The notes: a model not told the origin generated them from the sequence alone. A DNA stretch of 64,000 bases from Candidatus Eiseniibacteriota bacterium (GCA_041946735.1 JBHGAY010000006.1:103084-167083); one strand, 5' to 3'; positions 4,281 through 22,300 are shown, numbered from the stretch's first letter. Program-made: numbers and translations.

Positions 4281-5012
4281 TCACTGCCGGTACGGCAGCT
4301 CGTGCTCCCAGCACCGATGCAAGTCGGCTGCGTCTCGAATGTCGCGCACGAGCCTGCCCCGCTCGAGAACCAGAAACCGGGAGCAGGTCTGGGAGGCGAA
4401 GTCGAGATCGTGGGTGGCCACGAGCATCGCTGCTGGCAGATCGCGCAACAATCGCGCGAGGCGTCGCCGGCCGGGTGGATCCAGCCCGGCAGAGGGCTCA
4501 TCAAGAAGCAAGACCGCGGGATCAGTGACCATAGCGCCCGCAAGTGCCACGCGCTGCTTCTGGCCGTGGGAAAGATGGTGAACAGCGGATTCCGCCAGCT
4601 CGCTGATCCCGAGGGACTCGAGGATCCGCATTGCGCGCTCCGATGCCTCGCGCGACGGCAGCCCGCGACGCACCAGCCCGAACGCCACGTCCTCGATCAC
4701 CTTGGGAAAGAGCAGCTGATTCTCCGGCACATTGAAGAGAAAGCCGACTCGATTGCGGATCTCGGGCGCCGACCGCCTGGAGAGCGGAGTCCCGGTGACG
4801 AGGATCCTGCCTTCGTGCGGGACCAGTCCGACCACCGCCATGAGCGCCGTCGTCTTGCCCGATCCGTTGAGTCCGATCAACCCTACTCGTTCGCCGACCG
4901 CGACCGAGAAGGAAACGCCGGCCAACACCGACGGCGCCGCCGGCTCATATCGGACAGTGACTTCGCGGAACTCGAGGCCCGGCTCGGTTCGGCCCTGAGA
5001 CGGATCGGTCAC
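4281..5012 (-). CDS. ECF transporter ATPase (CbiO/EcfA-like)
   Basis: GTG start overlaps the TGA of the upstream gene. Walker A GLNGSGKT, signature LSHGQKQR, Walker B LLLDEP, ATHD switch. Confidence 0.9.
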   Translation of the reverse strand: MTDPSQGRTEPGLEFREVTVRYEPAAPSVLAGVSFSVAVGERVGLIGLNGSGKTTALMAVVGLVPHEGRILVTGTPLSRRSAPEIRNRVGFLFNVPENQLLFPKVIEDVAFGLVRRGLPSREASERAMRILESLGISELAESAVHHLSHGQKQRVALAGAMVTDPAVLLLDEPSAGLDPPGRRRLARLLRDLPAAMLVATHDLDFASQTCSRFLVLERGRLVRDIRDAADLHRCWEHELPYRQ

Positions 5013-5770: not shown

Positions 5771-5776
5771 CGCGAC

Positions 5777-6388
5777 CTACCCGACCGGCTTGGCAGCCGA
5801 GAGAATGTAGCTGTCCGGCGTTTCAACTGCGGTTGTCACCTCGAATCCTTGCGCCGTGAAAAGGTCCGCGAGATCCTGCACCGGCGGTAAGTGATCCCGG
5901 CAGATGGCCTCACCTGCGTCCGCGTGCACCTGGTTCACGCGCTCACGCGAAATCAGGTGCCACACGTGAACCCGCCCGCCCGGTCGCAGGACGCGGCGGA
6001 GTTCGCGAGCGACATCCTTCGGATCCTCGAAGTGCGGCCAGACCGAGTAGCAGATCGCACGGTCGCACGAGCCGTCACCGAGAGGGAGGTGCTCCGCTTC
6101 GGCCAGATGCCACCGAACACGAGCGTCGGAGACTTTCCCGCGCGCCGTTTCGATCATGCGCGGCGAGATGTCGACGGCCTCGACTCGCCCGTCGGCCGAC
6201 AGATGATTGAGCAATGCCGTAGTAAGGTTGCCGGTCCCGCACCCGATATCGAGCACGGTTTCCCCGGTGCCGACGCCGAAAGCACGCAGCCCGTCGTCGA
6301 ACTTTCGCGCCAGGGATTTCAGGCATTCCCATCCGTCCCATTGCTCGGCAATACCGTCGAAGAACGCGACCTTGGAATGGTTACTCAT
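5777..6388 (-). CDS. Class I SAM-dependent methyltransferase
   Basis: VLDIGCGTG motif I, AVDISPRM, AEHLPL, RVLRPGG. Confidence 0.9.
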   Translation of the reverse strand: MSNHSKVAFFDGIAEQWDGWECLKSLARKFDDGLRAFGVGTGETVLDIGCGTGNLTTALLNHLSADGRVEAVDISPRMIETARGKVSDARVRWHLAEAEHLPLGDGSCDRAICYSVWPHFEDPKDVARELRRVLRPGGRVHVWHLISRERVNQVHADAGEAICRDHLPPVQDLADLFTAQGFEVTTAVETPDSYILSAAKPVG

Positions 6389-6926
6389 AGAGGGTTGTCT
6401 CCGATCCCGAGGCGAGTCGGACAGACCTTCGGCAAACGGTGACCAAAGGCGGGACGACCATGATCATGAGCACGATGCCGGGCCATCCGCTGAGGAGCGA
6501 GAGGCCTGCCATGAATCCCGCGGGGAGATGAATGACCAGTGAGAATGCGTAGACGAGTCCGACGTAGAGGAAGCGCCCGAAAAGCAGGACCGGAACCAGG
6601 ATCAGCCAGGCGTTCGCCCGCAGCCAATGGCGGGCGGCGATGGCGATCAACCCCGCCATCAGTGCCAGCTCGATGGCCATGAAGACCGCGACCGGCGGAT
6701 AGAACGGCGGCATACCCATCAGGGCGCCCGAAAGAAGCGGGGTCAGGAGAGCGGTGACCGCCGCGGGCCACGGACGGACAAAGAAAGGAAGCGTCACCAG
6801 GGGCAGGTACATCGGCATGAAGACGTGCCCCAGATGAACCAGGTGAAAGATCGTGGGCAAGAGCAACGCGATTGCTCCGAACATCCCGCAATAGGCCAGT
6901 TCCCTTGCAGACAGCCGCGTCCCCAT
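6381..6926 (-). CDS. ECF transporter substrate-binding S component (specificity unknown)
   Basis: 181 aa with ~5-6 TM helices and N-terminal RELAYCGMFGAIALLLP..FH, typical of ECF S components. Lies in an operon with T and A components. Confidence 0.75.
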   Translation of the reverse strand: MGTRLSARELAYCGMFGAIALLLPTIFHLVHLGHVFMPMYLPLVTLPFFVRPWPAAVTALLTPLLSGALMGMPPFYPPVAVFMAIELALMAGLIAIAARHWLRANAWLILVPVLLFGRFLYVGLVYAFSLVIHLPAGFMAGLSLLSGWPGIVLMIMVVPPLVTVCRRSVRLASGSETTLYE

Positions 6927-6947
6927 CGGATCCCGGTCCTTCCGTGA

Positions 6948-9002
6948 CTAGAAGTCGGCCTTGAGCCCGCTCATCCATACCTGCCGGGGCATCGGGTATC
7001 CTGGCCGGTACTCGTATCGTTCGCCGGTGATGTTCTCACAGGCGAGGAACAGCTCGGCTTGCGATGCGTTGATCGGCAGGCGATAGCCGAGGCGTCCATT
7101 GAGCACGAAGTGTCGTTTCACCCGAGCCGTGGGGGACTCGTAGTCGGCCGGCGCGGCGAACCGGGGATTGAGGATGAACTGCGCGTCGCACCAGGCGGCA
7201 TCGAGGCTCAGCCCGAGTGCGCGGGTCAGCCTTGAGTTGAACCCTGCAGTGACGGCCCAGTCCGGCGCGTTCGGCAGGTCCTTCGGGGTCGGATGCATGA
7301 GCGTCACTCCAGCGAAGAGCGTGGAGGAACCGGCCTCGGTGGAAAGGCTCGTCTCCACGCCACGGTTGATGTATCGCCCGTCGTTATCGAAGCGCGGAGG
7401 CTGAAAGGGAGGCGGAGGCGGAATCACAGGCGGAACCCAGTGGAGCGCCGAGCGCACCTCGTCGTAGAACGCGTTCACCTCCAAATCGCACTTCGCATAC
7501 GGACGGAACCTCAAGCCCACCTCGTTGTGGTCGAGAAGCTCCGGGCTCAGGCTCTTCCACTCGTCGGGGCGGCCCCAGCTGTCGTACATCGCCGCGACGT
7601 AGACGCCCGGCAGGTTGAAGGCGCGGCTGTGCTGGATGTTCAGGCGGGTACGTCCCCGTTCGGCGGTTACACCTCCCTGCCACCCCCAATCCGAGCCGAA
7701 GAAGCGGCTGTCGTTGTAGCGTGCGCCGATCGACGGTGTCAGATGCCAACCGCCCACGGGATCACTAGCAAGAGGAAACGTCCGGGCCAGGGCCAGATAG
7801 GGCGCTCGATTGCGGAATTGGTGCGCCGACTCGGGTTGGTCGCCTGTCGCGAGCTTGTTCCGGGTCTTGCCTCCGTAGAAGTCCTGGTCGTATCCCAGAG
7901 TCAATGCAACTGCCGCGGGCAGCGGCACCGATTCCTGGAGGTGCAAGCCGTAGTTCTGGTAATCGGTCATCGTGGTGAAACTCTGTGCGGGCGCTCCGCC
8001 GCCCGGCGAGTCCCACTGGAGCCAATCCAAGTGTCCGTCCTCGAGGTAGACCTTGACCGTGCCCGTGGCGGGCCCGATCCGATGCGCCATCGTGGCCAGA
8101 TACAGCTCGGTGTCAGTCCGGAAGGTAGGAACGCGAAATGCAGGGTCTGCGAGTGGCCACGGATCCTTGGTCGAGCCGGGATCCTCGTCCTTTCCGTCCG
8201 TGTGCTCGACTTGGAAGTTCCAGTCCCAGCCCTGCGCGATCTGGTAGCCCGCTCGGCCATAGAGTGATTCGGTTCTGCCGGCAGCGAGGTCGCGCTGGCC
8301 ATCGCTGCGGTTTCGGCCTGCGCTCAGGTAGTAGTCGAAACGGCCGGTTTGGCCACCGTGGCGGATGACCCCGGACGACGTGTTATATCGCCCGAAAGCG
8401 CCCTCGACCGAGGTTTCGTACCCCGGCGCCGTTCGGCGGAGTGGCACCAGGTTGACGGTGCCGAAGGCCATGTTGCCTTGCAGCACCGGCTGCGCGCTCT
8501 TGCGAACCTCGATGCCGCCAGACGATTCCAGGGAGAGTGCGTCCATGATCGGATGGGTCCATACGCCCACGAATCGAGGGATGCCATCGAAGAGGGTGCT
8601 GACTTCGGCGCCGGGGCGGCCGGAGCCGAGCCCCCGAATGTAGACCGCCCCTCCATCCCCACCGCCGTATCCGCCGACGAGGTCGTAGCGCGAGATCGCC
8701 ACGCCCGGAAGCCTGCGCAGCGCGGAAGGGAGATCCAGCGCGTTCATGTCGCTGATCTGCCTGGGGCCCATGATCGTCACCAGGCCGCCCAGTCGATCCA
8801 GGCGCGTGTCCTCCAGGATCGGCCGGTCTGCCGTGACCACGATCTCGGGGAGAACGATGGCCTTCTTCGGGTCCGGCCCCTTCTCCTTCGATGTTGCCGT
8901 CGAGACCGAGCCAGCGGTCGCAGGCGCTGTGACCAAGAGCATTCCAGGCAGCAAGAGCCCCAGGCCCGCGAGCGCCCTCCTCAACCGGTGAGCCAATGTC
9001 AT
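6948..9002 (-). CDS. TonB-dependent outer-membrane receptor
   Basis: Signal peptide, TonB box EIVVTA, plug motifs LRRLPGV / YIRG / DGIP / IEVRK..GTVNLV, and C-terminal ENITGERY..MPRQVWMSGLKADF. Confidence 0.92.
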   Translation of the reverse strand: MTLAHRLRRALAGLGLLLPGMLLVTAPATAGSVSTATSKEKGPDPKKAIVLPEIVVTADRPILEDTRLDRLGGLVTIMGPRQISDMNALDLPSALRRLPGVAISRYDLVGGYGGGDGGAVYIRGLGSGRPGAEVSTLFDGIPRFVGVWTHPIMDALSLESSGGIEVRKSAQPVLQGNMAFGTVNLVPLRRTAPGYETSVEGAFGRYNTSSGVIRHGGQTGRFDYYLSAGRNRSDGQRDLAAGRTESLYGRAGYQIAQGWDWNFQVEHTDGKDEDPGSTKDPWPLADPAFRVPTFRTDTELYLATMAHRIGPATGTVKVYLEDGHLDWLQWDSPGGGAPAQSFTTMTDYQNYGLHLQESVPLPAAVALTLGYDQDFYGGKTRNKLATGDQPESAHQFRNRAPYLALARTFPLASDPVGGWHLTPSIGARYNDSRFFGSDWGWQGGVTAERGRTRLNIQHSRAFNLPGVYVAAMYDSWGRPDEWKSLSPELLDHNEVGLRFRPYAKCDLEVNAFYDEVRSALHWVPPVIPPPPPFQPPRFDNDGRYINRGVETSLSTEAGSSTLFAGVTLMHPTPKDLPNAPDWAVTAGFNSRLTRALGLSLDAAWCDAQFILNPRFAAPADYESPTARVKRHFVLNGRLGYRLPINASQAELFLACENITGERYEYRPGYPMPRQVWMSGLKADF

Positions 9003-9076
9003 GCACCGCCCCTCCCTTCCCCTCCGAGTCCACTCACGAGGGCCTGCACCGCTCCGCGCGGCGAGTGCAGTCTTCT

Positions 9077-9490
9077 CTAGGTCAGTCCCTTGCCGGTCGT
9101 TGCCGGACTGAGGTTGCCACTCTTCACGCCCTTGAGCGTCGTCAGGCGGTCAGCCAGGTCCCTGACTTTCGAGGCCTTTCCCTTGACGATGACGATCTCC
9201 AGGCAGTTGTGATGATCCATGTGAACGTGCGTCGTGCTGACGATCGAAGCCTGGCAGTCATGCTGGATCTGGGTGATGCGGTTGAGGAGATTCGGCTGGT
9301 GGTGATCGTAGACCATGGTGATCACCCCCATGACGTCTGCCTTGCCACCTTGCCACTCGTCCGCGACCAGCGCGCGACGGATCAGGTCACGCACACCCTC
9401 CGACCGGTTCTCATAACCGTGGACCTCTAGGAACCGGTCGAACCGATCCAACAGACCCGCGTCCAGAGTTGCCGAGAATCGCTCCACCAT
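9077..9490 (-). CDS. nikR: Nickel-responsive transcriptional regulator NikR
   Basis: RHH N-terminus RFSATLD..NRSEGVRDLIR. Ni-site motifs YDHH, QH and THVHMDHHNCLE. Confidence 0.95.
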   Translation of the reverse strand: MVERFSATLDAGLLDRFDRFLEVHGYENRSEGVRDLIRRALVADEWQGGKADVMGVITMVYDHHQPNLLNRITQIQHDCQASIVSTTHVHMDHHNCLEIVIVKGKASKVRDLADRLTTLKGVKSGNLSPATTGKGLT

Positions 9491-9491
9491 G

Positions 9492-9518
9492 GTAATACGA
9501 ATCCTCCACCAGTAATAC
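9492..9518. promoter_or_regulatory. Putative NikR operator GTAATAC-N13-GTAATAC spanning the nikR RBS and -10 element
   Basis: Two quasi-palindromic heptamers (9492-9498 and 9512-9518) 13 bp apart, an AT-rich patch in a GC-rich background, directly upstream of the nikR ATG. Confidence 0.7.
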
Positions 9519-9542
9519 TACCGATGCTGATGCGGCTGTCAA
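9515..9542 (-). promoter_or_regulatory. sigma70-type promoter of the nikR operon
   Basis: Minus strand reads TTGACA (9542-9537), 16-bp spacer, TAGTAT (9520-9515). Confidence 0.7.
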
Positions 9543-9545
9543 GAC

Positions 9546-10600
9546 TGTCCCTCCCGAAAACCCCATCTGCGCCTCCGATTCCGATCCGCGTCGTGATCTC
9601 GCTTCGTCCGCGGTCGACTCTATTCCCGGAAACGCGCTGTGAAGCGGGTCAATCTGTCGACGAAGGGGCCAGGCGGCAGTCTGGGCTTCGCCCGTTCGTG
9701 ACCAACCTGGACAGCCTGCGGGAGCGGGGGCGAGCCGTGAGCCTCAGGCGGCGACGCGTTCGTAGCGATGATGGAGTGCTCCGACCTCGGAGATCTCCAC
9801 GATACGGCCCACTCCCGGCCCCCGGACCTCCCGATGCTCGGGAGAGTCCATCTCCAGCGCCTGATGCGTCCGCCAACGATGGTCGTAGCCGAAGTACTCG
9901 GTCAGGATCCGTTTGAGGTGCCGCTCGTTCACAACGATGCAGTGGTCGAGGCGCTCGCGTCGAATCGACCCGATCAGCCTCTCGACGAAGGGGTTCTGCG
10001 AGGGTCTTCGCGCAGCGATCAGTATCTCCTCGAATCCCAACCCGCGCACCCGCTTCCGGAACGTCTCGCGTAGATCTTGTCGCGATCGCCGAGTAGGAAC
10101 CTGGGCGGGTCCTGCCAGGGAAACGCTTCGACGAGCTGTTGCGCCGCCCATCGGGCAGTCGGGTTCGACGTCACGTTGAAGTGGAGCACTCGGCGTCGAT
10201 TGTGGGCGAGCACGAGAAAGACGAAGAGTATCTGGTTACGGACGGTCGGGACGACGAAGAAGTCGGCCGCGATGATCTCTCGCACGTGGTTCTTGAGAAA
10301 CGCGCGCCACGTTGCGGACGGCGGCCGCCTCCTCCGGATCCTGTAGCGCTCGACCGTCGACTTCGCGACCTCGATCCCGACCATCCGCAGCTCACCAACG
10401 ATTCGAGCCGACCCGCACATTGGGTTCGCAGCGGACATCTTGCGGATCAGATCTCGCACCTCTCGCGGAACCGCCGGTCGCCCGGAACGCCCCGACCGAC
10501 ACAGCTTGCGCCAGTGATCCCGGAACTTTCGTCGACGCCAGGCGAGGACCGTTTCCGGCTGAACGAAGAGAAGGGCGTCGCGCCACGCAGGCCAGAGGCT
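9546..10600 (-). mobile_element. Degenerate IS element (rve/DDE integrase, IS3/IS481-like), left part missing
   Basis: Contains the integrase pseudogene 9744-10600. Possible terminus TGTCCCTCCCGAAAACCCCATC begins at 9546 (TGT end). Confidence 0.65.
9744..10600 (-). pseudogene. Integrase core-domain transposase, frameshifted near 10070 and 5'-truncated
   Basis: One frame gives VQPETVLAW..RIVGEL..AADFFVV..GDRDKIY. A second frame continues ETFRK..QNPFVERLIGSIRRERLDH..HHRYERVAA. No N-terminus or start upstream of ~10600. Confidence 0.85.
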
Positions 10601-11001
10601 GGTACTGCTATGAGGCTGCTTCTGTCCAGTGCTGTGACAGCTACGGCAACAGTGGCGGCGATGGCCTCTGCGGCATCGACCTCGGCGGGAACTTCTCGGC
10701 CGACCCGCTCTTCTGCGATGCGCCGAACGGCGACTACACGCTCGACTGGGCCTCGCCCTGCCTCCCCGGCAACCACCCGGATGGTGTCGACTGCGGCCTG
10801 ATCGGGGCACTGGACGCCGCGTGCGGCACACCGCCGGTGACCGGCGCCTGCTGCCTCGCTGACAACTCCTGCATCGTCATCGAGGCCGAGAACTGCCCGG
10901 GCACCTACATGGGGGACGGCACGACGTGCACACCCGAGATCTGCGTGCCGACAGCCGTGGACAGGACGACGTGGGGCCGGATCCGCGGAGCGTATCGATG
11001 A
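10597..11001 (+). pseudogene. 3' remnant of a secreted Cys-rich protein (probably beta-helix type) ending in a TWGRIR motif
   Basis: GNFSADPLFC..DYTL..SPCLP..IGA, then GACCLADNSC..GDGTTC and VPTAVDRTTWGRIRGAYR*. Upstream the frame runs into antisense integrase sequence, so the native 5' part is absent. Confidence 0.7.
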
Positions 11002-11182
11002 TGTTCGAGGGGAAAGGCTATTGACCTGGGCGAGACTGGCGCTGACAGCTGGACCGGGAGGTCGGGGAGCGGGGCCGCGGGTGGACGGCGAGCGCCCCGA
11101 GGAGGTGGGAGCGGGAGCGGCAGCGGGAGCGGCAGCGGCGCAGGCGTCGTGAGCGTGAGCAGCGCGGAAGGACCGGCGGCGC

Positions 11183-14100
11183 TCACCCCCCGGTAGCGCC
11201 GCCTGCGCTGCCTTCCGCGAGGCGGAGGGCTTCCTCGAGCGGCATCGCCCGTCCGGCCGCCCAGAGAGAGACGAAGCGATCGGCGCCGAGAGCGTCGCGC
11301 AGCTCGCGGACCCGGTCGTCCCAGATCGCGCGCTCCCCTTCGCCGATCGGCAATCCCATCGCCTCGTGCTGAGCCTCCGCGGCGCCGAGGAGACGCGCCG
11401 CCCGGGCGTGCTCTCCGGAGCGGTGGTCGACGGCGCCCAGCGTCGTCAGGACGGCGAGGAGCGTGACCTGCTCCGCCGCTTCTCGCGCGAGGTGCAGCGC
11501 TTCCACCGCATGCAGGCGCGCTTCGTCCACCGCGCCGCCCGCGAGGGCGATCTCGGCCAGCGCCGAGAGCGAGGCGGCGAGCTGGCGCCTCTGTCCCGTT
11601 CGGCGAAGGACGGCCACACCTTCCTGCGCGAGACGCCGCGCGCGCGAAGCCTCTCCGAGCTGCAGGAGGCTGTAGCTCAGATTGCGACTCGTGACCGCCT
11701 GGTTCGCGTCGTCTCCGATCTCCCGCAGGATCGCGATCGCCCGCTCGTAGTGCGGGACCGCCTCCGTGTGATTGCCGAACCTCGCCTCCAGCACTCCGAG
11801 GTTGCAGGCGAGGGTCGCCATCGCGTGGAGCTGCCCGGCCGCCTCGTGCAGGGCGAACGACTCGGTGAGGAGGGCTCGCGAACCTTCCACGTCCCCTCGA
11901 AGATCGGCGAGGTAGCCGAGCAGGTTCAGCGCCTGCGCGATCGAGTCGCCCTCGCCGGTCGGGCGCAGCAGCGCCAGCGCTTCGCCGCCCAACTTCCACG
12001 CGCCGTCCAGGTCCCCGGTCGGCCAGAGGAGAGAGGAGGCTCCGACCATCGCGCGTCCGCGCAGCTCGGGCGGCGAGCCGGCGGCGGAGGCGAGCATCTC
12101 GGAGAAGTGGCGGTGCCCTTCGCGGAACGACTCGCTGCGAAACCAATAGCGGCGGAGCGAAAGGCAGAGCCGGATGCCGGCTTCGAGACGCGGCGCCTGG
12201 CCGGAGCCGCCTCCGGCTCGCGAAGCCCAGGCGATCGCGGCGCGGAAGTCGTCGGTCTCCGCTTCGATCGCGGCCATCGCTTGCGGCTCGACCGGACCGA
12301 CCATGCGGGCGTCCGCCTCGCGGGCGAATCGCAGGAACCAGGCGAGGTGGCGATCGCGGCCGCGCGCCTCCTCGCCCGCTTCGCGAAGGCGGTCGAGAGC
12401 GAAGGCGCGCACCATCTCCGGCATTCGATAGCGAGGCGGGGAAGCCTCGGAGTCGAACTGCGCGATCGAGCGGCGCACGAGACTCTCGAGAAGGCCGAGA
12501 ACCGGCTCGCCGCCAATGGTCCCGCCTTCGCTGCTCTTCTCTTCCTCGCCGGCGCCGCCTTCGTCGGCGCAAACCGCGCGCGCGGCGTCGAGCGTCCAGC
12601 CTCCCGCGAAGACGGCGGAGCGGGCGAGGCAGAGCTGCTCGGGCGGCGAGAGCAGCCGGTAGCTCCAGTCGATCGAGGCGAGCAGCGTCTGCTGCCGCGG
12701 CAGGACGGCGGCGTCGCGCACGGAGAGCAGCCGGAAGCTTTCGTCCAGGTGGTCGGCGATCTGCTCGGGGGTGAGCGCGCTCGTGCGGGCGGCGGCGAGC
12801 TCGATCGCGAGCGGGATCCCGTCGAGCCGGCGGACGATCCGCGCGATCGCCGGAGCGATCTCCGGCGTGACGGCGAAGCCGGGCCGCTGGCGGCACGTCC
12901 GGTCGACGAAGAGGCGCACCGCTTCCGCATCGAGGATCTCGAGCCCCTCGCGCTCTCCCGACCGCGCGGGCGGAAGCGGCGGAACCGAGAGGGATCGCAC
13001 GCGCATCGTCCTCTCGCCGGGATGTCCGAGCGGCTCGCGGCTCGTGGCGAGGATGCGCAGGCGTGTTTCCGTCCCGGCAGGGAGGAGGCCCGCGAGCAGC
13101 TCACGCACGCCGCCGAGCACGTGCTCGCAGTTGTCGAGCACGAGCAGCAGGGTCTTGCCGCGCGCGAACTCGAGCACCTGCTGGAGCGCGTCGCGCTGCT
13201 TCGATTCCGGAGCGCCGACGGCGGAGGCCGCCGTTTCGGCGACGAGATACGGGTCCTGCAACGGGGCGAGATCGACCCACCACACGCCGTCCGGGAGCCA
13301 GCCGGCCGCCTCCTCGGCGGCGCGATGCGCGAGCCGCGTCTTGCCGCAGCCGGCCGAGCCGGTCAACGTCACGAGCCCCGGCTCGAGCAGCAGGCGGCGC
13401 ATCTCCAGGATCTCCTCGCGACGTCCGATCAGGCGCGTCGGGAACGAGGGAAGATTGCCCGGCGCGTTCGCCGCAGGCCGGCCGGCGCCGTCGCTCTCGG
13501 TGGCCGGCGCCCCGCGCTCGTCGTCCGCCACGCCCCCCGCGTCCCCGGCGGCGACGCGGAAGTGCGCGGCCAGCTCGCGCGCCGAGCGCGGGCGATCGGC
13601 GGGATCGCGTGCAAGGCAGCGATCGATCGCGCGCGCGAGAGACGGCGGGAGGTCCGGGCGAAGCTCCCGCACCGGCAGGATCTCGCCGCGTCGGTGCTTG
13701 TCGATCAGCTCCGCCCAGCTCGACGCGGCGACCGGATGCCGCCCGGTCGCGAGCCGGTAATGGAGGCAGCCGAGCGCGTAGAGGTCGCTCGCGTGCGAGG
13801 CCGGTGCGGTCCCTTGGAGCAGCTCGGGGGCCATGACGATCGGGGTTCCTTGCGGACTGCCGTCCGGGAAGACGCGCTCGCGGCCGGTCGCCGTTCCGGC
13901 CCCGAAGTCCATGAGGATCGTGCGGCCGTCGGGATCGCGCATCGCGTTCGACGTCTTGACGTCGCCGTGGATCAGCCCGGCGTCGTGCACGGCGGCGAGG
14001 GCGGCGCAGAGATCGATGCCGATGCGGGCGACCTCCGCGGCGGGCAGCGGGCCTTCGCGCGCCAGGCGCTCCTCGAGCGTCTCGCCGCGGATGAAGTCGG

Positions 14101-14647
14101 TCCACATGCCGGCGCGACGGTCGTGCACCTCGACCCCGTGCACGGTCAGGACGTTCGGATGGCGCACGCGGGCGAGCCGTCTCGCCTCCTCGAGGTGCTC
14201 CTCGAACGCCGCCTCTTCCGCTTCGCCCGCGAAGCGTCGCAGCTTCAGAGCCACCTCCCGGTGGAGGACCGTGTCGAAGGCGCGGAAGACCTCGCCGAAG
14301 CTGCCGGACCCGAGGCGCGAGAGGACGCGAAGCGGTCCCCAGTCGAACGGAAGGCCTGCCGCCGCGGAGCCTGCCTGCGCGGGCTGCGGTCCGTCCGGCG
14401 GCGGGACCGCCTCCGCGGGCGGGATCTCGAGCGGCTGCGCGCAGGCATCGGCGACCGAACGGATCAGGCGCATCCATTGGAGCCGGCCGGCGAGGCGCGG
14501 CTCCTGCGCGGCGAGGGCATCCCAGTCCGGCTCGCGACCGTCGGCGAGACTGCGGGCGGCGGCGAGGAGGATCGGATCCGGCGAGCGACTCTCGTGCCCC
14601 GCCGCCCCCTTTCGCTTTCCCTCTCGCTTACGCGGGCCGGTAGGCAT
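11183..14647 (-). CDS. Ser/Thr protein kinase fused to STAND (NB-ARC/AfsR-like) ATPase and TPR repeats
   Basis: Kinase motifs LGSGSFGEV, VALK, HGDVKTSN, DFG, GTPIVMAPE, SDLYALG. ATPase motifs GSAGCGKT, LLVLDNCEH, ATSREPL, LDGIPLAIELAA. TPR-like C-terminus and no evident TM segment. Confidence 0.92.
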   Translation of the reverse strand: MPTGPRKREGKRKGAAGHESRSPDPILLAAARSLADGREPDWDALAAQEPRLAGRLQWMRLIRSVADACAQPLEIPPAEAVPPPDGPQPAQAGSAAAGLPFDWGPLRVLSRLGSGSFGEVFRAFDTVLHREVALKLRRFAGEAEEAAFEEHLEEARRLARVRHPNVLTVHGVEVHDRRAGMWTDFIRGETLEERLAREGPLPAAEVARIGIDLCAALAAVHDAGLIHGDVKTSNAMRDPDGRTILMDFGAGTATGRERVFPDGSPQGTPIVMAPELLQGTAPASHASDLYALGCLHYRLATGRHPVAASSWAELIDKHRRGEILPVRELRPDLPPSLARAIDRCLARDPADRPRSARELAAHFRVAAGDAGGVADDERGAPATESDGAGRPAANAPGNLPSFPTRLIGRREEILEMRRLLLEPGLVTLTGSAGCGKTRLAHRAAEEAAGWLPDGVWWVDLAPLQDPYLVAETAASAVGAPESKQRDALQQVLEFARGKTLLLVLDNCEHVLGGVRELLAGLLPAGTETRLRILATSREPLGHPGERTMRVRSLSVPPLPPARSGEREGLEILDAEAVRLFVDRTCRQRPGFAVTPEIAPAIARIVRRLDGIPLAIELAAARTSALTPEQIADHLDESFRLLSVRDAAVLPRQQTLLASIDWSYRLLSPPEQLCLARSAVFAGGWTLDAARAVCADEGGAGEEEKSSEGGTIGGEPVLGLLESLVRRSIAQFDSEASPPRYRMPEMVRAFALDRLREAGEEARGRDRHLAWFLRFAREADARMVGPVEPQAMAAIEAETDDFRAAIAWASRAGGGSGQAPRLEAGIRLCLSLRRYWFRSESFREGHRHFSEMLASAAGSPPELRGRAMVGASSLLWPTGDLDGAWKLGGEALALLRPTGEGDSIAQALNLLGYLADLRGDVEGSRALLTESFALHEAAGQLHAMATLACNLGVLEARFGNHTEAVPHYERAIAILREIGDDANQAVTSRNLSYSLLQLGEASRARRLAQEGVAVLRRTGQRRQLAASLSALAEIALAGGAVDEARLHAVEALHLAREAAEQVTLLAVLTTLGAVDHRSGEHARAARLLGAAEAQHEAMGLPIGEGERAIWDDRVRELRDALGADRFVSLWAAGRAMPLEEALRLAEGSAGGATGG

Positions 14648-15251
14648 GCATCGCTTCGGTGAGGCGGACGATGGCGCGCGCGATCTGCATCCGGACGGCG
14701 TTCGCCGACGAGCGCCCGAGGGCTTGCGCGATCTCGGGATGGCTGAAGCCGAACTCGATCCGGAGGATCACCGCCTGCCGCTGCTCGTCGCTCAAGCTCG
14801 CGAGCGCGCGGTCGTACGCCTCGAGGGCGCCGTGGCCGATCGTCCGCTCCAGCACCTGCTCGCGCGAGGCCGGCAGGTCGGTGTCGAGCGAATCGATCGG
14901 ATGGCGCTGCGCGCGCCGGATCTCGTCGCGGATCACGTTGATCAGGATCTGATGCAGGTAGGACAGAAAGGCTCCTTCGCGACCCGCCTCGAACTCGCCG
15001 ACCCGGTTCAGCGCGCGCAGCAGCGCGGTCTGCACCACGTCGTCGGTGTCCATCAGTCCCCGGGAATGAGCGGGGAGCCGCCCGTGTGCCCAGCGGCGCA
15101 GCCCCGGCAGGAAGCGCGCGATCAGACGGTTGCGCGCCTCGTCGTCGCCCGAGCGGATGCGGTCGAGGAGCACGCGCGTCGTCTCGAGGTCGGTCCTCGA
15201 ATTGTTGGATGCGGGCCGGGCGCCCTCCGCGGGCCGGCGGGGTGGATGCAC
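14628..15251 (-). CDS. ECF-type RNA polymerase sigma factor
   Basis: GTG start after GGAGG. Region 2 DTDDVVQTALLRA..FLSYLHQILINVIRD and region 4 LSDEQRQAVILRIEFGFSHPEIAQALG. Overlaps the kinase start by 20 nt. Confidence 0.9.
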   Translation of the reverse strand: MHPPRRPAEGARPASNNSRTDLETTRVLLDRIRSGDDEARNRLIARFLPGLRRWAHGRLPAHSRGLMDTDDVVQTALLRALNRVGEFEAGREGAFLSYLHQILINVIRDEIRRAQRHPIDSLDTDLPASREQVLERTIGHGALEAYDRALASLSDEQRQAVILRIEFGFSHPEIAQALGRSSANAVRMQIARAIVRLTEAMHAYRPA

Positions 15252-15469
15252 GCTGTCCGTCCTCCGAGTCTTGCGGGTACGGGATCCCCGGGATGGGGGG
15301 ATCGGGCGGCAAGAGGATCGGGGGACTATAGCATGCTCCGCGGCCGGCCGAGCTTGATTGGAGCGCGGGCGACGTGTAATGTCCTCTGCCGGTGGCCGAT
15401 CAGGCGGTCGAACGATCGGCCCCTTCTCTTCGACTGGCCGTCCGGGGTTGGAGAGCCAGGGAGATTCCG

Positions 15470-17470
15470 ATGGCGACCGCCCGCGGAATGTTCGCTCTTC
15501 CGGCGCCACGCGCGCGTTCCCGCTCGTCCATCCCGGTCCGCGCTTTCGTTGCGTCGCTCGCCCTCTTCGCACTGTCCTGCGGTGACGATGCTGAGAAGCC
15601 GACGCCCCCCGATACGACTCCTCCCGCTTCGGTGCAGAACCTGGCCGCGGTCTACGCGCCAGGCCGCGTGACTCTCGGCTGGACGGCGCCTGGCGACGAC
15701 GGCGGGGAAGGAAGAGCGAGCCTCTACGACCTGCGCTTCGCCGGCGCGCCGCCGACCGAATCCTCGTGGGACTCGGCGACGGTGGTTCCTTCCTGCCCGG
15801 AGCCGCAGGAGGCGGGCGGCGTGGAGCATGTCGATCTTCCGGCGCTCCCGGAAGGAACGTGGCACTTCGCGCTGCGAACCGCGGACGAGGTGCCGAACTG
15901 GTCGGGGCTGTCCAACGTGGTTGTCGTGACCGTGCTGCCCCCGCCCGATCTGCTGCCCCCGGACGCCGTGAGGAACCTGATCGTCTCGTCGACGACCGAC
16001 CACAGCGCGACACTTTCCTGGACCGCCTCGGGAGACGACGAGACATTCGGGACGGCGTCGGCGTACGACATCCGCTACGCGACCGCCGAGATCACGGCGG
16101 AAACCTGGGAGACGGCGACCCCGGTCGCGCAGCCACCCGTTCCGCAGCCGGCCGGGGCCACGGAGAGCTTCACGATCGACGGCCTCGAGACGGGCGCGAC
16201 GTACCACTTCGCCTTGAAGGTCGCCGACGAGCGGCCGAACTGGTCCGCGCTCTCCAACAGCGCCAGCGCCCCGATCGCCGACGTCGCGCCGCCTGCGACC
16301 GTCCGGGATCTCGCGGCGGAGCTGGGCGGACAGGGAAGCGTGACGCTGCGCTGGACTGTGCCTGGAGACGATGGACAAGCCGGGCGCGCGTCCTCGTATG
16401 ATCTCCGCTACTCGACGGTCGTCATCTACGAGGAAGTCCTCGACTGGAGCTGGGAGCGCGCGACGCCGGTACCCGATACCCCGGCGCCGGGGGAACCGGG
16501 GAGCGCCGAGACGTTCACGGTGACCGGCCTGCAGCCGGGAACGCTCTACTACTTCGCCCTGCGCGCGTTCGACGAGTCGGGCAACGGCTCGGGCCTTTCG
16601 AACGTCATCACGGGGAACGCCTTCCCCTGGTCCCTGCATCAGCTCACGAGCAGAATCGAGTCGACCTGGCTGTACGAGCCCCAGTGGTCCCCCGACGGAC
16701 AGGAGATCGCCTTTGCGCAAGGAGGGACGGGGAGTGTCGAGATCTACCGGATCTCCGCATCCGGCGGCGCTCCGGTGCAGCTCACGAGCCATCCCGGCTT
16801 CCGCAGCGGCGATCCCACCTGGTCTCCGGACGGCTCGCGCATCGCCTTCTTCTGTTCCCCGACCGAGTATCCGGAAGGGAAGAGCGGCGATCTCAGGATC
16901 ATGGACGCGGCGGATGGCGGAAACGAGAGGACCGTGATCCACGCGGACGAGGGGCTTTGGGGGTGCGCCTGGTCCCCCGACGGCGAGCGGATCGCGTACG
17001 TCGTCGGTCCCCGCTTTCTCACCATCCTGACCCCGACCCTGATTTGCGCGATTTCGCCGGAGGGAGGAGCGCCCGACACGCTGTTTCGAGGCGACTACTT
17101 GAACATTCATCCCGCGTGGTCTCCCGATGGACGTCGGATGGCGCTCGTTTCCGGCCGGGACGAATGGGCCAAGCTCTGGAACGTTCCCGCCGGAGGGGGG
17201 ATCTGGGTCTACCTGGACGGAGAGATGCGCGTGCAATGCGGGCGGCCGACGTGGTCGAGCGATGGATCGCGCATCGCCTATGATCGGCGCCACAACGACA
17301 ACCTGGACATCTGGCTGACGCGTGCGGACGGAGCGAGCGCCGTTCCCCTCATTGAAGGCCCGGCCCGCGACCTGGACGCGTCCTGGTCGCCCGACGGGAG
17401 CCGGATCGCGTTCGTGTCGGACAGGACGGGGCAGGCGGAGATCTGGATCCTCGATCTGGATCTGCGGTGA
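15470..17470 (+). CDS. Lipoprotein with three fibronectin type III-like repeats and a TolB/PD40 beta-propeller
   Basis: Lipobox LFALSC. Three repeats of W.T.pGDD..G.AS.YDlRy..y.FALr..DE..N.S.LSN. Six (P/A/S)WS.DG..IA repeats. Confidence 0.85.
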   Translation: MATARGMFALPAPRARSRSSIPVRAFVASLALFALSCGDDAEKPTPPDTTPPASVQNLAAVYAPGRVTLGWTAPGDDGGEGRASLYDLRFAGAPPTESSWDSATVVPSCPEPQEAGGVEHVDLPALPEGTWHFALRTADEVPNWSGLSNVVVVTVLPPPDLLPPDAVRNLIVSSTTDHSATLSWTASGDDETFGTASAYDIRYATAEITAETWETATPVAQPPVPQPAGATESFTIDGLETGATYHFALKVADERPNWSALSNSASAPIADVAPPATVRDLAAELGGQGSVTLRWTVPGDDGQAGRASSYDLRYSTVVIYEEVLDWSWERATPVPDTPAPGEPGSAETFTVTGLQPGTLYYFALRAFDESGNGSGLSNVITGNAFPWSLHQLTSRIESTWLYEPQWSPDGQEIAFAQGGTGSVEIYRISASGGAPVQLTSHPGFRSGDPTWSPDGSRIAFFCSPTEYPEGKSGDLRIMDAADGGNERTVIHADEGLWGCAWSPDGERIAYVVGPRFLTILTPTLICAISPEGGAPDTLFRGDYLNIHPAWSPDGRRMALVSGRDEWAKLWNVPAGGGIWVYLDGEMRVQCGRPTWSSDGSRIAYDRRHNDNLDIWLTRADGASAVPLIEGPARDLDASWSPDGSRIAFVSDRTGQAEIWILDLDLR

Positions 17471-17549: not shown

Positions 17550-17732
17550 TCAACTGCTGACCGGCGGCTCCTTCGACCGGGTCTTCGTGATCCCGGCGAC
17601 GATCCCTATGCCGGCGAGCACCAGGGCGATCACGACCATCCATTTGTCCGAGACGTGGAGCAGGCTCGCGGCGTAGAGCACTCCTGCGATGAGGATGGCG
17701 AACCCTATCCAATAGACGAGCGTGTTCGTCAT
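17550..17732 (-). CDS. Small two-TM membrane protein
   Basis: GGAGAG RBS; 60 aa with two hydrophobic helices and a basic tail; fills the intergenic gap downstream of the IDH-family gene. Confidence 0.65.
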   Translation of the reverse strand: MTNTLVYWIGFAILIAGVLYAASLLHVSDKWMVVIALVLAGIGIVAGITKTRSKEPPVSS

Positions 17733-17907
17733 CGGCGTTCTCTCCTTCCCCCCTCGCCTCGAGACAGCCCGATCCTGCCGGGCCTTTCCCTCAGGCTACC
17801 CCGGCGGGCGCTTGACGGAGAGGAAGGAGTGCTGCGAAGAAGCGCGAACGGTCGCTCGATGCGGGGACGGGCCGTCCGCACGCACGCACGGCGGACGGGC
17901 GGGGCGA

Positions 17908-18921
17908 TCAGGATCCGAGGCGGCGCAGGACGGCCTGCGTGAACTCCCGCGTGCCGGCGCGCCCGCCGATATCGGCGGTGATCTCCTCGGGACGTCCGTC
18001 CTGCAGCACGGCGTTGTACGCCGCCTTGATGCGGTCGGCGACGTCGCGCTGGCCGATGTGGTTCAGCATCATCACGGCGGTCATGATCAGGGCGAGCGGG
18101 TTGGCCTTGCCCTTCCCCGCGATGTCCGGCGCGCTGCCGTGCACCGCCTCGAAGATCGCGCAGTCGTCCCCGATGTTCGCTCCCGGCACGACGCCGAGGC
18201 CGCCGACCAAGCCCGCGCACAGGTCGCTCACGACGTCGCCGTAGAGATTCTCGAGGAGCAGAATGTCGAAGCGGGTCGGATCGCGCACGAGCTGCATGCA
18301 GCCGTTGTCGATGATGATCTCCTCGTACTCGATCCCGTCTCCCTCGATCTCGTGGATGCGGCGGGCGCTGTCGATGAAGAGTCCATCGGACATCTTCATG
18401 ATGTTCGCCTTGTGGAAGACGGTCACCTTGCGCCGCCCGCGCTCGCGCGCGTAGCGGAACGCGAAGCGGGCGATCCGCTCGCAGGCGTCGCGCGAGGCGA
18501 TCTTCAGGCTTTCGACGACCCCCGGGACCACCTCGTGCTCGATTCCCGAGTAGAGCCCTTCGGTGTTCTCGCGGATGACGACGATCTCGACGTTCTCGTA
18601 GCGAGTGCGCACGCCGGCGAGCGAGCGGATCGGACGCACCGCCGCGTAGAGGTGGAAGCGTTTCCGGAGCTGGACGTTCACGCTCGCGAAGCCCCGCCCG
18701 ACCGGAGTCGTCACCGGACCCTTGAGCGCGAGCCGGATCTTCTCGATCGCGTCCAGGGTCTGCTTCGGCAGCACCTCGCCGTACTTCTCGGCCGCGGCCG
18801 CTCCCGCTTCCAGCCGGATCCAGTCGATCTCGGCGCCGGCCGCGCCCAGCACCTCGAGCGTCGCCTCGGTCACCTCCGGCCCGATCCCGTCTCCGGGGAG
18901 CAGGCAGACCGTCCTGCGCAT
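17908..18921 (-). CDS. Isocitrate/isopropylmalate dehydrogenase family, likely NAD-dependent isocitrate dehydrogenase
   Basis: PGDGIGPEV, SVNVQLR, RENTEGLY, HKANIMK, NLYGDVVSD, EAVHGSAPDIAGKG. GAGGA RBS. Confidence 0.9.
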   Translation of the reverse strand: MRRTVCLLPGDGIGPEVTEATLEVLGAAGAEIDWIRLEAGAAAAEKYGEVLPKQTLDAIEKIRLALKGPVTTPVGRGFASVNVQLRKRFHLYAAVRPIRSLAGVRTRYENVEIVVIRENTEGLYSGIEHEVVPGVVESLKIASRDACERIARFAFRYARERGRRKVTVFHKANIMKMSDGLFIDSARRIHEIEGDGIEYEEIIIDNGCMQLVRDPTRFDILLLENLYGDVVSDLCAGLVGGLGVVPGANIGDDCAIFEAVHGSAPDIAGKGKANPLALIMTAVMMLNHIGQRDVADRIKAAYNAVLQDGRPEEITADIGGRAGTREFTQAVLRRLGS

Positions 18922-19311
18922 GGCGTTCCTCCTCGCACGTGGCCGAGCCGCTGCGGCCACGGCCGATCTTCCGTTCGCGCCGATCGGCGACCGGGGGACG
19001 GCTGCCTGGCGCGCTCGCGCGCGGCCTCGTGCCTGCGTGCCCGCGCGAATGGCAGAGTGTAGCAGCCGGCCGCCCGGACCCGGCCCCGAACTTCCCGAGC
19101 GCGGGTAGACGCCGGCGCCTCGTGTGAGGCCGCACGCTCTCTTCAACGTTCTCTCCTCCGGCGCCGTCTGGTTGACTACGAGTCTCGCGACAGGCGGCGA
19201 GACCGGCGGAGCCTTGCGAGGGAGGCCCGCGAGGGGCCGGGGGCTCCCTTTCCCATGAGGACGACAGGCGCCCGGGCGGCAGCCGGGGCGAAAAGCCAGG
19301 AAGGAAGAACC

Positions 19312-22300
19312 ATGAAGAGGCATCGGACCCCCAGCGCAGCGCCGGCGGGCGCTCCCCACATCGCGGCCGCGTCGCGCATTGCGACCGCGCTCTGCATCGC
19401 CGCCGCCCTTTGCGTCGCGGTGGCTGCTTCCGCGGCGGCCCGCCCCGGATACCTGCGGTACCCCGACATCCGGGGAGAGACGGTCGTCTTCACGGCCGAG
19501 GGCGACCTCTGGATCGCTCCGGTCGCTGGCGGGGAGGCGCGGCGCCTCACCTCGCACCCTGGCAACGAAGTCCTTGCGAAGTTCTCGCCGGACGGGAAGT
19601 GGATCGCCTTCGCGGGCGACTACGACGGCAACCGGGATCTGTTCGTCGTGCCGGCGACGGGCGGCGAGCCGGTGCGTCTCACCTGGCACCCGGCGGCCGA
19701 CGAGCCGATGGGATGGAGCGCCGACGGCACGCAGATCTACTTCCGCAGCTATCGCCAGCAACCGAACCTCGGTTGGTTCGCCTATGCGATCCCGGCGAAG
19801 GGCGGGGATCCCGTCCCGCTCGACATCGGATGGATGGTGAACCTCGCGGTCGATCCCGCCACCGGCGCCTACGCCTTCACGCGCAACGGCGGCGGCGGCA
19901 CCTGGAAGCGCTATCGCGGCGGCACGGCCGACGACATCTGGGTCGGCGATCCCTCCCGCGCCGACTTCCGGGCGGTCACGAGCTTCCCCGGAATGGACGC
20001 CTTCCCGATGTGGTCCGGCGGCAGGATCTACTTCCTCTCGGATCAAGGCGGGACGGCGAACGTCTGGTCGATGAACCCCGACGGCAGCGGCCGGAAGCAG
20101 TGGACCGACCTCCGCGACTGGGATGCGCGCTGGCCTTCGATCGATCCCGGCAGCGGCCGGATCGTCTTCGTGGTCGCGGGCGACCTGCACCTTCTCGATC
20201 CGGCCAAAGGGACGGAGAGCGCGATCGCGATCGACCTTCCCAGCGAGAGGAGCCTGACGCGCACGCGCTACCCCGAAGCGGAGCGCTACATCACCGGCTT
20301 CGCGCTCGCGCCCGACGGAGAGCGTGTCGCGATCCAGACTCGCGGCGAGATCTTCTCGGTCCCGGCCGAGGACGGCGTGACGCTGCCGATCACGCGGGGG
20401 AGCGGCGCGCGCGAGGACCGCGTGAACTTCGATCCGAAGGGGGAGCGGGTCGCCTACGTGACCGACCAGAAGGGCGAGCAGCAGATCGTGACCGCGGACG
20501 CCTGGGGGCGCGGATCCGTCCGCGAGGTGACGAAGCCGGGCTCGAGCGCCTGGCACTTCGCGCCGATCTGGTCCCCGGACGGGAAGTGGCTCGCCTACGC
20601 CGACCAGACGCACACGCTCTTCGTCGTCGACGCGAACGGCGGAGATCCGCGCAAGGTCGACCATGCCGAGCAGGGGGAGATCTACGACTACTCCTGGAGC
20701 CCGGACGGCCGCTGGCTCGCGTACTCGAAGCCCAACGATCTCCAGTACCGCTCGATCTTCGTCTACGACACCCGCGACGGCGGGACCCATCGCATCACCG
20801 GCTGGACGACGAGCGACTCGAGTCCCGCCTGGGATCCCGAAGGGCGCTACCTCTATTTCCTCGGCGACCGGACGATCAATCCTGTCGTCGATTGGGGAGT
20901 GTGGGACTTCGAGACGATCCTGACCGCCTCGACGCGCCCCTACGCGGTCCTGCTCCGCGCCGACGTGGACAATCCAGTGGCGGAGACCGAGGGGATGCCG
21001 CCGGACGAGTCGAAGAAGGAGGAAGCGTCGTCGTCGAAGGGTGGCGAGAAGGCCAAGGGCGGCGAGAAGGCCAAGGATGGCGCGAAGTCGAAGAAGAGCG
21101 ACGACGAGGGGGCGATCGAGCCGATCGCGATCGACTTCGCCGGGATCGAGGATCGATTCGTCGAGCTGCCGGTCGAAGCGGGCCGCTACGTGGCCTTGAC
21201 GGCGACCGGCGAGAAGCTCTTCTTCCTCTCCCTGCCGCTCCGCGGATTGCTCGACGAGGGCCAGGATCAGGAGGAAGGCGGCGTCGCCGGCGACCTGCTC
21301 GCCTACGACCTCGAGAAGAAGGAAGCGAAGCCGTTCGTGAAGGGGGTGCGCAGCTATGACCTCCAGCCGAAGAGCGGCAAGATGGCCGTCCTGAAGGGAC
21401 GGAGCGAGCTTTTCGTCCTCGACGCGAACTCGCCTCCCGGCGACGACCTCTCCGAGAACCAGGTTGCCCTCGGCGGGATGGTGGTGGAGCTCGATCCCCT
21501 CGAGGAATGGCGCCAGATCTACTACGAGGGATGGCGCTACATGCGCGACTTCTACTGGGACGCGGGGATGCACGGCGTCGACTGGGAGGCGGTGCGCGAC
21601 CACTACGCGACGCTCCTGCCCCGGCTGGCCACGCGCGACGACCTGGGCGATCTGCTGGCGGAGATGATCGGCGAGCTGTCGACGTCCCACACCTACATCT
21701 GGGGCGGCGATCGGGGTGTCACCTCTCCGCAATGGCCGGCGGGACTGCTCGGCGCCGATCTCGTGCGCGAGGGATCCGCCTTCCGCGTCGAACGAATCTA
21801 TCGCGGAGACCCGGCGGACCGCGTTCGCTCGCCACTCTCCGAGCCCGAGGCGAACGTGAAGGAAGGGGAGTACGTCCTCGCCGTGAACCACCAGCCGTTC
21901 CGCGAAGGGGTGCCGTTCGAGGCGACGATGCAGAACCTCGCCGGAAAGCCGGTCGTCCTCACGGTCAACACGAAGCCGGCGATGGAGGGCGCGCGCGACG
22001 TCGTCGTGAAGCCGGCCGCCTTCGGCCCCGAGGCGGAGCTGCGCTACAAGGACTGGGTGCGGCGCAACCGCGAGTATGTCGCGGAGAAGACCGGGGGCAG
22101 AATCGGCTACGTGCACATTCCCGACATGGGCGGGCGCGGGCTGAAGGAGTTCGACACCTGGTTCTATCCGCAGCTCGACAAGGAAGGGATGGTGATCGAC
22201 AACCGCTGGAACGGCGGCGGGTTCGTCTCCCAGCTGATCGTCTCGCGCCTGTCACGTCACCTCGTCTCGTTCGATCGCTCGCGCTGGGGCGGCGTGTCGA

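Follow-up and report, generated by a model that had tools for sequence, protein, structure and literature searches.

An ECF sigma factor conserved beside a Hanks-type kinase, here with a soluble STAND-TPR sensor, in a Candidatus Eiseniibacteriota bacterium

We analysed a 64,000-nucleotide stretch of DNA (the window) on contig C56 of the 4.9-Mb, 72-contig genome of a Candidatus Eiseniibacteriota bacterium, in which the gene for an extracytoplasmic function (ECF) sigma factor overlaps the gene for a soluble Hanks-type Ser/Thr kinase fused to a STAND ATPase and a TPR array. Kinase genes accompany the relatives of this sigma gene in several phyla, and a minority of these kinases have the soluble STAND form in exchange for another sensor module. 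We consider the locus to be a two-gene unit in which the sigma factor is probably controlled through phosphorylation by its own, STAND-TPR-sensing kinase. An earlier note, made from the sequence alone, had described a sigma factor coupled to a kinase-STAND-TPR protein instead of an anti-sigma factor, and had proposed an NLR-like sensor that triggers transcription by phosphorylating the sigma factor. Its sequence observations were confirmed, and its interpretation was partly supported.

The sigma gene (14628–15251, minus strand) encodes 207 amino acids, from a GTG start at 15251 with GGAGGA 8–9 nt upstream to a TAA stop. Its product belongs to the ECF (group 4) sigma-70 factors, scoring above the cut-offs of Pfam Sigma70_r2 (46.8 versus 24), Sigma70_r4_2 (44.2 versus 25.7) and PF07638 (34.2 versus 21.1) and of NCBIfam TIGR02937 (74.1 versus 42.9). 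The best NCBIfam subfamily was the planctomycete TIGR02984 (Sig-70_plancto1), of which the sigma factor is not a member, since its score of 82.4 is far under the cut-off of 183.75. As the earlier note had stated, the sigma gene overlaps the kinase start by 20 nt (14628–14647, minus strand), with the sigma TAA at 14628–14630 and the kinase ATG at 14645–14647, an arrangement that probably couples the translation of the two proteins. Also as stated there, no anti-sigma gene is nearby: the 21 neighbouring open reading frames (ORFs) contained no anti-sigma domain (Pfam, E up to 0.001), and neither the protein encoded at +1 nor the neighbours belong to the anti-sigma factors (ZAS, RskA, FecR and the like). 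An Rfam scan of the window found no RNA family.

The kinase gene (11183–14647, minus strand) encodes 1154 amino acids from an ATG start. Residues 1–100 (14348–14647, minus strand) form an N-terminal extension with an A..ADG..(V)DW motif, here LADGREPDW at residues 34–42 (14522–14548). Among 54 aligned family kinases, the extension residues A31, D36 and W42 are at least 90% conserved. The kinase domain (residues 108–362; 13562–14326, minus strand) matches Pkinase in Pfam at E 2.2e-36, and its best solved relative is PknE (2h34, E 2.5e-32); a scan of its PDB relatives for a solved PknS structure found none recognisable by name. All motifs of a Hanks-type Ser/Thr kinase are present, namely the Gly-rich loop (GSGSFG, 113–118), the VAIK Lys (VALK, 132–135), the alpha-C Glu (E154), HxD (HGD, 227–229; 13961–13969), DFG (247–249) and APE (273–275), and K135, E154, H227, D229, N234, D247, P274 and E275 are invariant in the 54 aligned kinases. 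The enzyme is non-RD, as had been noted, and this is a family trait, with the Gly of H-G-D found in 66 of 72 family kinases. The observation that it lacks a transmembrane segment also stood: averaged over 19 residues, its hydropathy peaks at 1.43 and nowhere reaches the 1.7 characteristic of the membrane helix in its relatives.

The rest of the protein bears out the description of a kinase fused to an NLR-like ATPase and TPRs. Residues 396–760 (12368–13462, minus strand) form an NB-ARC-like STAND NTPase with helical and winged-helix parts, recognised by Pfam, motifs and a structural model. Walker A (GSAGCGKT, 430–437; 13337–13360), Walker B (LLLVLDNCEH, 500–509; 13121–13150) and a GIPLA motif (610–614; 12791–12826) are all encoded on the minus strand. 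AAA_22 scored 32.7 versus a cut-off of 27, while NB-ARC, at 21.2 versus 23.5, and likewise NACHT fell just under theirs; NB-ARC scores in relatives were 31.9 (L052), 27.5 (L012), 26.3 (L013), 25.4 (L073) and 24.4 (L080). Residues 761–1154 (11186–12367, minus strand) are the TPR sensor array, with TPR_12 at 48.9 versus a cut-off of 30.1 and a TPR_MalT match. An AlphaFold2 (AF2) model of residues 396–1154, built from 46 aligned sequences, reached pLDDT 92.3 and pTM 0.90, with helical repeats from model residue 365 (the model starting at protein residue 396) to the end. Among known structures, the model most resembles 6mfv_A, a solved STAND-TPR protein (E 4.2e-15, TM 0.50/0.57), followed by Apaf-1 (1z6t, E 1.4e-9; 3sfz), CED-4 and plant NLR resistosomes, so that the term "NLR-like" is justified as a description of the fold. 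With Walker A and B, GxP, a helical and winged-helix arm, a repeat sensor and this fold, the protein belongs among the NB-ARC (AP-ATPase) STAND proteins.

The pairing of sigma and kinase genes was widely conserved. The sigma factor had 805 database relatives at E ≤ 0.001 among 2618 candidates, and the 120 listed homologs are 52–76% identical to it, the window's own protein aside. A pattern scan with one genome per species gave 225 relatives, and the best 80 loci were used. In 75 of these 80 loci, a homologous kinase domain is encoded directly downstream on the same strand; because it recurs in this way, the pairing, which the earlier note had suggested surveying, is not due to chance. Paired loci occur in Eisenbacteria, Acidobacteriota, Krumholzibacteriota, a metagenome-assembled genome labelled Gemmatimonadota, and Gammaproteobacteria, and the nearest public relatives are labelled Candidatus Eisenbacteria. 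Within the window's phylum, 86 of 151 sampled genomes (the window's genome and the unpublished genome G015 among them) have a sigma relative at E ≤ 1e-35; G015 enters into none of the other results.

The five remaining loci were of three kinds. At L011 and L018, the sequence ends 200–310 nt past the sigma gene, and at L022, a divergent kinase lies upstream of it. At L036 and L087 (Marinicella sp. W31), with the flanks viewed as ORF coordinates, there was no kinase match within 6 kb of the sigma gene. The L087 sigma gene (5989–6555) encodes an ETDD motif, and the next downstream ORFs of at least 120 aa are on the opposite strand; this sigma factor may be an orphan, or its kinase may be located elsewhere. 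Among the 75 paired loci, the kinase of L060 belongs to another clade. In L014, the STAND-type partner kinase is split (6548–9888), with its kinase domain in two frames and the STAND part as a separate frame, through either a frameshift or a sequencing error.

Short overlaps are the rule in relatives, given that the commonest start-minus-stop offsets across the 75 loci, taken from the first start codon in each frame, were −13 (19 loci), −3 (9), −16 (6), −10 (6) and −19 (5). The sigma-linked kinases form one clade (SH-aLRT 100), and the four other kinases of the window's genome that served as outgroup all fall outside it, including two kinase-STAND proteins without an adjacent sigma gene (on C12 and C34). 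Sigma and kinase distance matrices are correlated (Mantel r 0.715), a value reached by none of 1000 permutations.

The window's genome itself repeats the pattern. It has 23 sigma region-2 matches and 22 kinase domains, and exactly three sigma factors of this family were found (on C56, C6 and C15), each with a gene that overlaps or abuts that of a kinase-STAND-TPR protein. The three paralogous pairs co-diverge, with sigma identities of 66, 49 and 52% versus kinase identities of 61, 52 and 54%. Six more kinase-STAND-TPR stretches are present in this genome (on C34 and C12, two on C23, and on C2 and C43), at E ≤ 3.9e-39 against the window's protein. By tblastn with the kinase domain or the STAND part, five of the six are supported as full kinase-STAND paralogs without a close homolog of the window's sigma gene adjacent.

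To the kinase, sensors of several kinds are attached across the family. We surveyed the parts that follow the kinase domain in 60 complete partner kinases of at least 500 aa. DUF4384 alone was present in 36, TPR in seven (four with DUF4384 and three without), TPR_12/TPR_10 in seven and FG-GAP in two, while one had no match. A P-loop ATPase with TPRs was found in the remaining seven (L012, L013, L026, L052, L072, L073 and L080). Of the 60, 52 have a hydrophobic segment after the kinase domain, and six of the eight lacking one are STAND types; the segment called in L073 is located in the ATPase and is probably a false call. Most partner kinases are thus one-pass membrane kinases with DUF4384, TPR or FG-GAP ectodomains. 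The soluble NLR-like sensor of the earlier note therefore stands by sequence and fold, with the correction that it is one of several interchangeable modules. In the kinase tree, the branching of the STAND forms, near the base of the clade, is mostly unresolved; labelling the tree by sensor needs four changes, of which well-supported branches force only one.

The STAND-TPR module is also attached to many other outputs. Residues 400–1154 had at least 7601 relatives among 8000 scored candidates, with fusions to SARP/BTAD, class 3 adenylate cyclase, LuxR, XRE, TIR or kinase domains. One relative joins the whole set: P0148, a metagenomic protein of 1237 aa, is a natural single chain of sigma (DTDD), kinase, STAND and TPR parts, with 48% identity to the window's kinase over 1043 residues, and it is without the N-terminal extension of the kinase. 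Long open frames around the sigma genes of L093 and L096, considered as further sigma-kinase fusions, were rejected as high-GC read-through upstream of separate, overlapping genes.

In sigma region 2.2, the motif MDTDDVVQ (residues 67–74; 15030–15053, minus strand) contains the threonine to which the earlier note had drawn attention, Thr69 (codon 15045–15047). This residue is present in all 120 listed homologs and at all 80 loci, a conservation on which that note had staked its proposal. Its neighbours are nearly as constant: all 120 homologs have Asp or Glu at position 68 and Asp at position 71, and 110 of them have Asp at position 70. Of the 80 loci, 56 encode DTDD, 14 encode ETDD and the remaining 10 encode other [DE]-T-x-D variants. 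When aligned to E. coli sigma-E, D-T-D-D falls on D-V-P-D, and when aligned to the genome's other sigma factors, the Thr69 column is mostly Ala. From these alignments, Thr69 is the second residue of the DAED motif usual in ECFs; the note was right that a Thr stands there, with the nuance that it replaces the Ala and that three acidic residues are kept. Within the window's genome, a Thr occupies this position in all three kinase-linked sigma factors versus none of the 20 other sigma region-2 matches. A second near-invariant threonine, T25 (118 of the 120 homologs), lies in the N-terminal sigma motif L-E-[ST]-T-x-x-L-L (residues 22–29; 15165–15188, minus strand).

The closest described systems are ECF43 sigma factors. 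EcfP of Vibrio parahaemolyticus and EcfK of Xanthomonas citri are established to be directly phosphorylated by their kinases, PknT and PknS, respectively (PMC8999054, PMC13147305). The window's pair is like ECF43 in that a Hanks-type kinase gene is at +1 and there is no anti-sigma factor, in its PF07638-type sigma factor (PMC7826278), in the N-terminal extension of the kinase, which in PknS has 83 residues (PMC13147305), and in the conserved Thr in the first part of region 2.2. The ECF43-like form of the kinase, with one membrane helix and TPR_12/TPR_10, is that of seven of the 60 partner kinases surveyed. However, the motifs differ. In ECF43, the acidic DAED is lost and replaced by uncharged Ser/Thr (consensus QTTA; STTA in EcfP and QATE in EcfK; PMC8999054, PMC13147305, PMC7826278), whereas the window's family has [DE]-T-D-D. 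The phosphorylated Thr of ECF43 is at the third DAED position (PMC8999054, PMC13147305), which in the window's family is an Asp. Since Thr69 is at the second position and the acidic residues are retained, the ECF43 charge switch does not transfer simply: activation by added charge is not given, and the earlier likening of Thr69 to the ECF43 phospho-position did not hold. The kinases differ as well, with a membrane helix and extracytoplasmic TPRs in ECF43 as opposed to a soluble protein whose TPRs follow a cytoplasmic ATPase, and the published group is proteobacterial, whereas the window's family is mainly from Eisenbacteria and Acidobacteriota. The window's pair thus resembles an ECF43-type kinase-gated sigma factor but lacks two ECF43 features, the region 2.2 motif and the kinase architecture.

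The catalogued ECF groups in which a kinase is linked to the sigma factor and an anti-sigma factor is absent are ECF43, 59, 61, 62, 217 and 283, in addition to 267 with a FecR-like protein, and membrane kinases are described for all of them (PMC7826278). The earlier notion of a kinase "instead of an anti-sigma factor" therefore applies to a conserved, co-diverging pair but not as a new principle, since this is a hallmark of several catalogued groups. ECF59, ECF61, ECF62 and ECF217 (planctomycete) and ECF283 are like the window's pair in that the kinase replaces the anti-sigma factor and a DAED-like motif is kept (Casas-Pastor et al. 2021; Jogler et al. 2012 cited there; PMC8999054). They differ in their kinases, which are described as membrane-bound, with one to six helices and WD40, TPR or zinc finger parts (PMC7826278). 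It has been suggested that the kinase-linked groups besides ECF43, which keep the DAED-like motif, may work differently, and Ser/Thr in or near this motif have been proposed as phosphorylation targets (PMC8999054).

A further comparison is with STAND-TPR regulators. AfsR-type SARP-NB-ARC-TPR proteins, adenylate cyclase-ATPase-TPR proteins and 6mfv have the P-loop, GxP and TPR module in common with the window's protein. MalT and M. tuberculosis PknK are further STAND-TPR regulators with this module. The outputs differ: those of the regulators bind DNA or make cAMP, whereas the output here is a kinase of a sigma-dedicated clade whose gene overlaps that of the sigma factor. In the literature, we found no described ECF sigma factor paired with a soluble NB-ARC/STAND kinase, although an earlier mention is still possible in an expanded-ECF43 survey. 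The part of the supplementary text of PMC7826278 that was searched contained neither "NB-ARC" nor "soluble protein kinase", and a mention in the remainder is possible. The only literature match was a report of cyanobacterial r4_2-NB-ARC-TPR proteins (PMC11119718). Judged by its sequence, the window's sigma factor is best filed as a member of an undescribed [DE]-T-D-D kinase-linked ECF family, in which here a cytoplasmic NB-ARC-TPR switch has taken the place of the membrane sensor.

Taken as a control unit, the pair would most likely work as follows. In the C56, C6 and C15 pairs, the cytoplasmic NB-ARC-like STAND ATPase and TPR array stand in place of the membrane helix and ectodomain. The TPR array would bind an intracellular ligand or protein, upon which the STAND module would exchange nucleotide and oligomerise, bringing kinase domains together and thereby activating them. 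The active kinase would then phosphorylate the sigma factor, with Thr69, Thr25 and the linker as candidate sites. This would change the use of the sigma factor by RNA polymerase, and the regulon would be transcribed, probably including the neighbouring secreted and lipoprotein genes. A more specific version of this scheme is tentative and, in our view, rather doubtful: the [DE]-T-D-D sigma factors would be a separate ECF group with a phospho-switch of its own at Thr69, beside an Asp that mimics the ECF43 phospho-site, tuning or blocking core binding, and the kinases of the STAND branch would be switched on when a cytoplasmic ligand induces oligomerisation like that of an apoptosome or resistosome.

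The earlier note had also suggested modelling the complex of the two proteins. We predicted the sigma factor together with kinase residues 1–380, both given as alignments, and took the median of three runs. The score was 0.57, versus 0.00 for the best control; at least 59% of contacts were common to the runs, with a partner pLDDT of 65 or more. In calibration, 116 of 157 solved complexes and two of 215 mismatched pairs attained the score mark, and scores of 0.60 or lower included only 18 of the 157 solved complexes, plus both passing mismatches. The predicted sigma-kinase complex is thus weakly supported.

Several points weigh against control by phosphorylation as we propose it. That the sigma factors of this family are phosphorylated at all we infer. 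Positions 1, 3 and 4 of the motif are acidic, so the sigma factor may already bind core RNA polymerase, and the logic of ECF43 may therefore not apply; Thr69 could instead be structural. A Mantel correlation would arise between any two genes that are linked and have a common history. The fusion P0148 is one metagenomic record and could reflect an assembly or frame error. The complex prediction yields weak support and no contacts, and no conserved ECF-type promoter motif was found near the sigma genes or their neighbours.

Part of this evidence could be read the other way, with a kinase that mainly binds the sigma factor in the manner of an anti-sigma factor, through its N-terminal extension, or that phosphorylates Thr69 to turn it off; the sigma factor would then be intrinsically active, and the signal would release it. 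We regard this as unlikely, but it would account for the retention of the acidic [DE]-T-D-D motif. It would also fit the roughly 100-residue extension, with its A..ADG..(V)DW motif conserved in 54 kinases, as well as the loss of that extension from the covalent fusion P0148, as expected of a docking element, and the stable complex that is weakly predicted. In addition, EcfK T51A is still functional, and region 2.2 phosphorylation is therefore not always the switch (PMC13147305). However, the kinase contains no known anti-sigma domain (Pfam, E up to 0.01), its invariant catalytic residues argue that catalysis matters, and the only studied precedents activate by phosphorylation.

The two genes might alternatively be merely co-transcribed, such that the sigma factor drives or accompanies expression of the kinase, the kinase acts on other proteins, and the sigma factor is regulated otherwise. 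The genome offers some room for this, in that most of its 22 kinases, alongside 23 sigma region-2 matches, are not beside a sigma gene, and the five full kinase-STAND paralogs have no close homolog of the window's sigma gene adjacent; sigma phosphorylation, moreover, is something we infer. We nevertheless find co-transcription alone an improbable explanation, against which stand the gene overlap kept in most of the 75 loci, the separate clade of sigma-linked kinases, the invariant Thr found in this genome only in kinase-linked sigma factors, the natural fusion P0148, and the lack of an anti-sigma factor or other regulator nearby.

An NLR-like anti-phage (Avs-like) sensor, in which a phage protein would be sensed by the STAND-TPR part and defensive transcription set off by the kinase, is very improbable: the NB-ARC fold is common to Apaf-1 and plant NLRs and PADLOC kinase models, PD-T4-6 and mad6 among them, match the kinase domain, but these matches cover the generic kinase domain only, there are three paralogous pairs in the genome, the nearest STAND-TPR relatives are regulator modules with SARP, adenylate cyclase, LuxR and XRE domains, and the neighbours in the window and nine other STAND-type loci are large secreted FlgD_ig, FG-GAP and fn3-PD40 proteins and housekeeping genes. 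Of 33 PADLOC families matched, the best 25 were all kinase-domain models, none of them Avs or STAND, and the sigma factor and three neighbours (the fn3-PD40 lipoprotein, the 17722–19062 ORF and the tricorn-like protease) had no match. With generic kinase matches and no defence-island context, the pair does not belong to Avs or the catalogued defence systems. Thus the phage protein that the earlier note had listed among possible inputs found no backing, and its suggested comparison of neighbourhoods turned up secreted and lipoprotein genes instead of defence islands.

The gene divergent from the sigma gene (15392–17470, plus strand; probable ATG at 15470) encodes a lipoprotein with the lipobox LSC, in which Pfam places a PD40 beta-propeller besides three fn3-like domains. 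This gene is a candidate target of the sigma factor. The possibility that this protein is itself an anti-sigma factor was rejected, as it has a lipoprotein signal and no cytoplasmic domain. The same architecture is encoded 2 kb upstream of the sigma gene in L052. Co-directional with the lipoprotein gene is a tricorn-like protease gene (19255–22926, plus strand; PD40, Tricorn_C1, PDZ_Tricorn and Peptidase_S41 in Pfam). Other STAND-type pairs are also flanked by secreted proteins, with FG-GAP in L012 and FlgD_ig tails in L013, L073, L080, C6 and C15, compared with fn3-PD40 in L052 and the window. Such proteins are very common in this genome, and their adjacency is therefore weak evidence. At least 150 proteins of the genome have a C-terminal FlgD_ig domain (150 of 249 candidates scored). 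Eleven of the 22 kinases, the window's pair not among them, lie within 6 kb of a FlgD_ig gene, versus 6.0 ± 2.1 at random (39 of 2000 simulations), a proximity that is suggestive only.

Searches for a shared promoter gave little. A spaced-dyad search of 79 upstream regions found nothing above shuffled sequences, and no common motif emerged when the upstream region from the window was aligned with those of L012 and L011. A first pass over whole loci gave a signal that was only coding conservation of the sigma gene. Masking of the sigma and kinase genes left GAACA-N17-AACA, seen in 20 of 83 sequences, as the top dyad; it turned out to come from the coding region of a conserved neighbour. Hexamers resembling a −10 element (at least five of six matches to TATAAT) were present upstream of 20 of 79 sigma genes versus 4.4 ± 1.8 in random segments, but non-coding DNA is more AT-rich anyway, so nothing firm follows. 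Since no conserved ECF-type promoter motif was found, the regulon we propose is a guess.

On the far side of the kinase gene, the roughly 1.6 kb from 9517 to 11183 contain only remnants and no intact gene. Here, at 9744–10831 (minus strand) and 10312–11001 (plus strand), are two adjoining ORFs of an integrase-core (rve-like) transposase, split by a frameshift, together with a C-terminal fragment of a Cys-rich secreted protein with a WGRIRGAYR-type tail; both family names come from reading the translations, which had no Pfam match. Further along is a nickel/cobalt uptake cluster (5009–9490, minus strand) with NikR (9077–9490), a TonB-dependent receptor with a Plug domain (6948–9002), a methyltransferase and CbiQ. 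A sigma-70-like promoter match, TTGACA-16-TAGTAT, precedes nikR at 9542–9515. An FG-GAP protein of at least 1308 aa, with 12 repeats and a weak FlgD_ig tail (2–3928, plus strand), runs off the start of the window.

The locus introduces no new principle. Kinase-gated ECF sigma factors have so far been represented by two studied proteobacterial pairs, both with membrane receptor kinases. Here, the sigma-kinase chassis is widespread in poorly studied phyla, and its kinase can carry different sensors in exchange for one another, among them a cytoplasmic NB-ARC-TPR switch. With this switch, an "extracytoplasmic function" sigma factor would read an intracellular cue. The locus is also a clean test case for whether a sigma factor with its acidic core-binding residues intact can be regulated by region 2.2 phosphorylation. 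If the more specific version of our scheme, which we hold to be rather doubtful, is true, the pair would constitute a direct bacterial NLR-to-RNA-polymerase pathway, present in three parallel copies in the window's genome.

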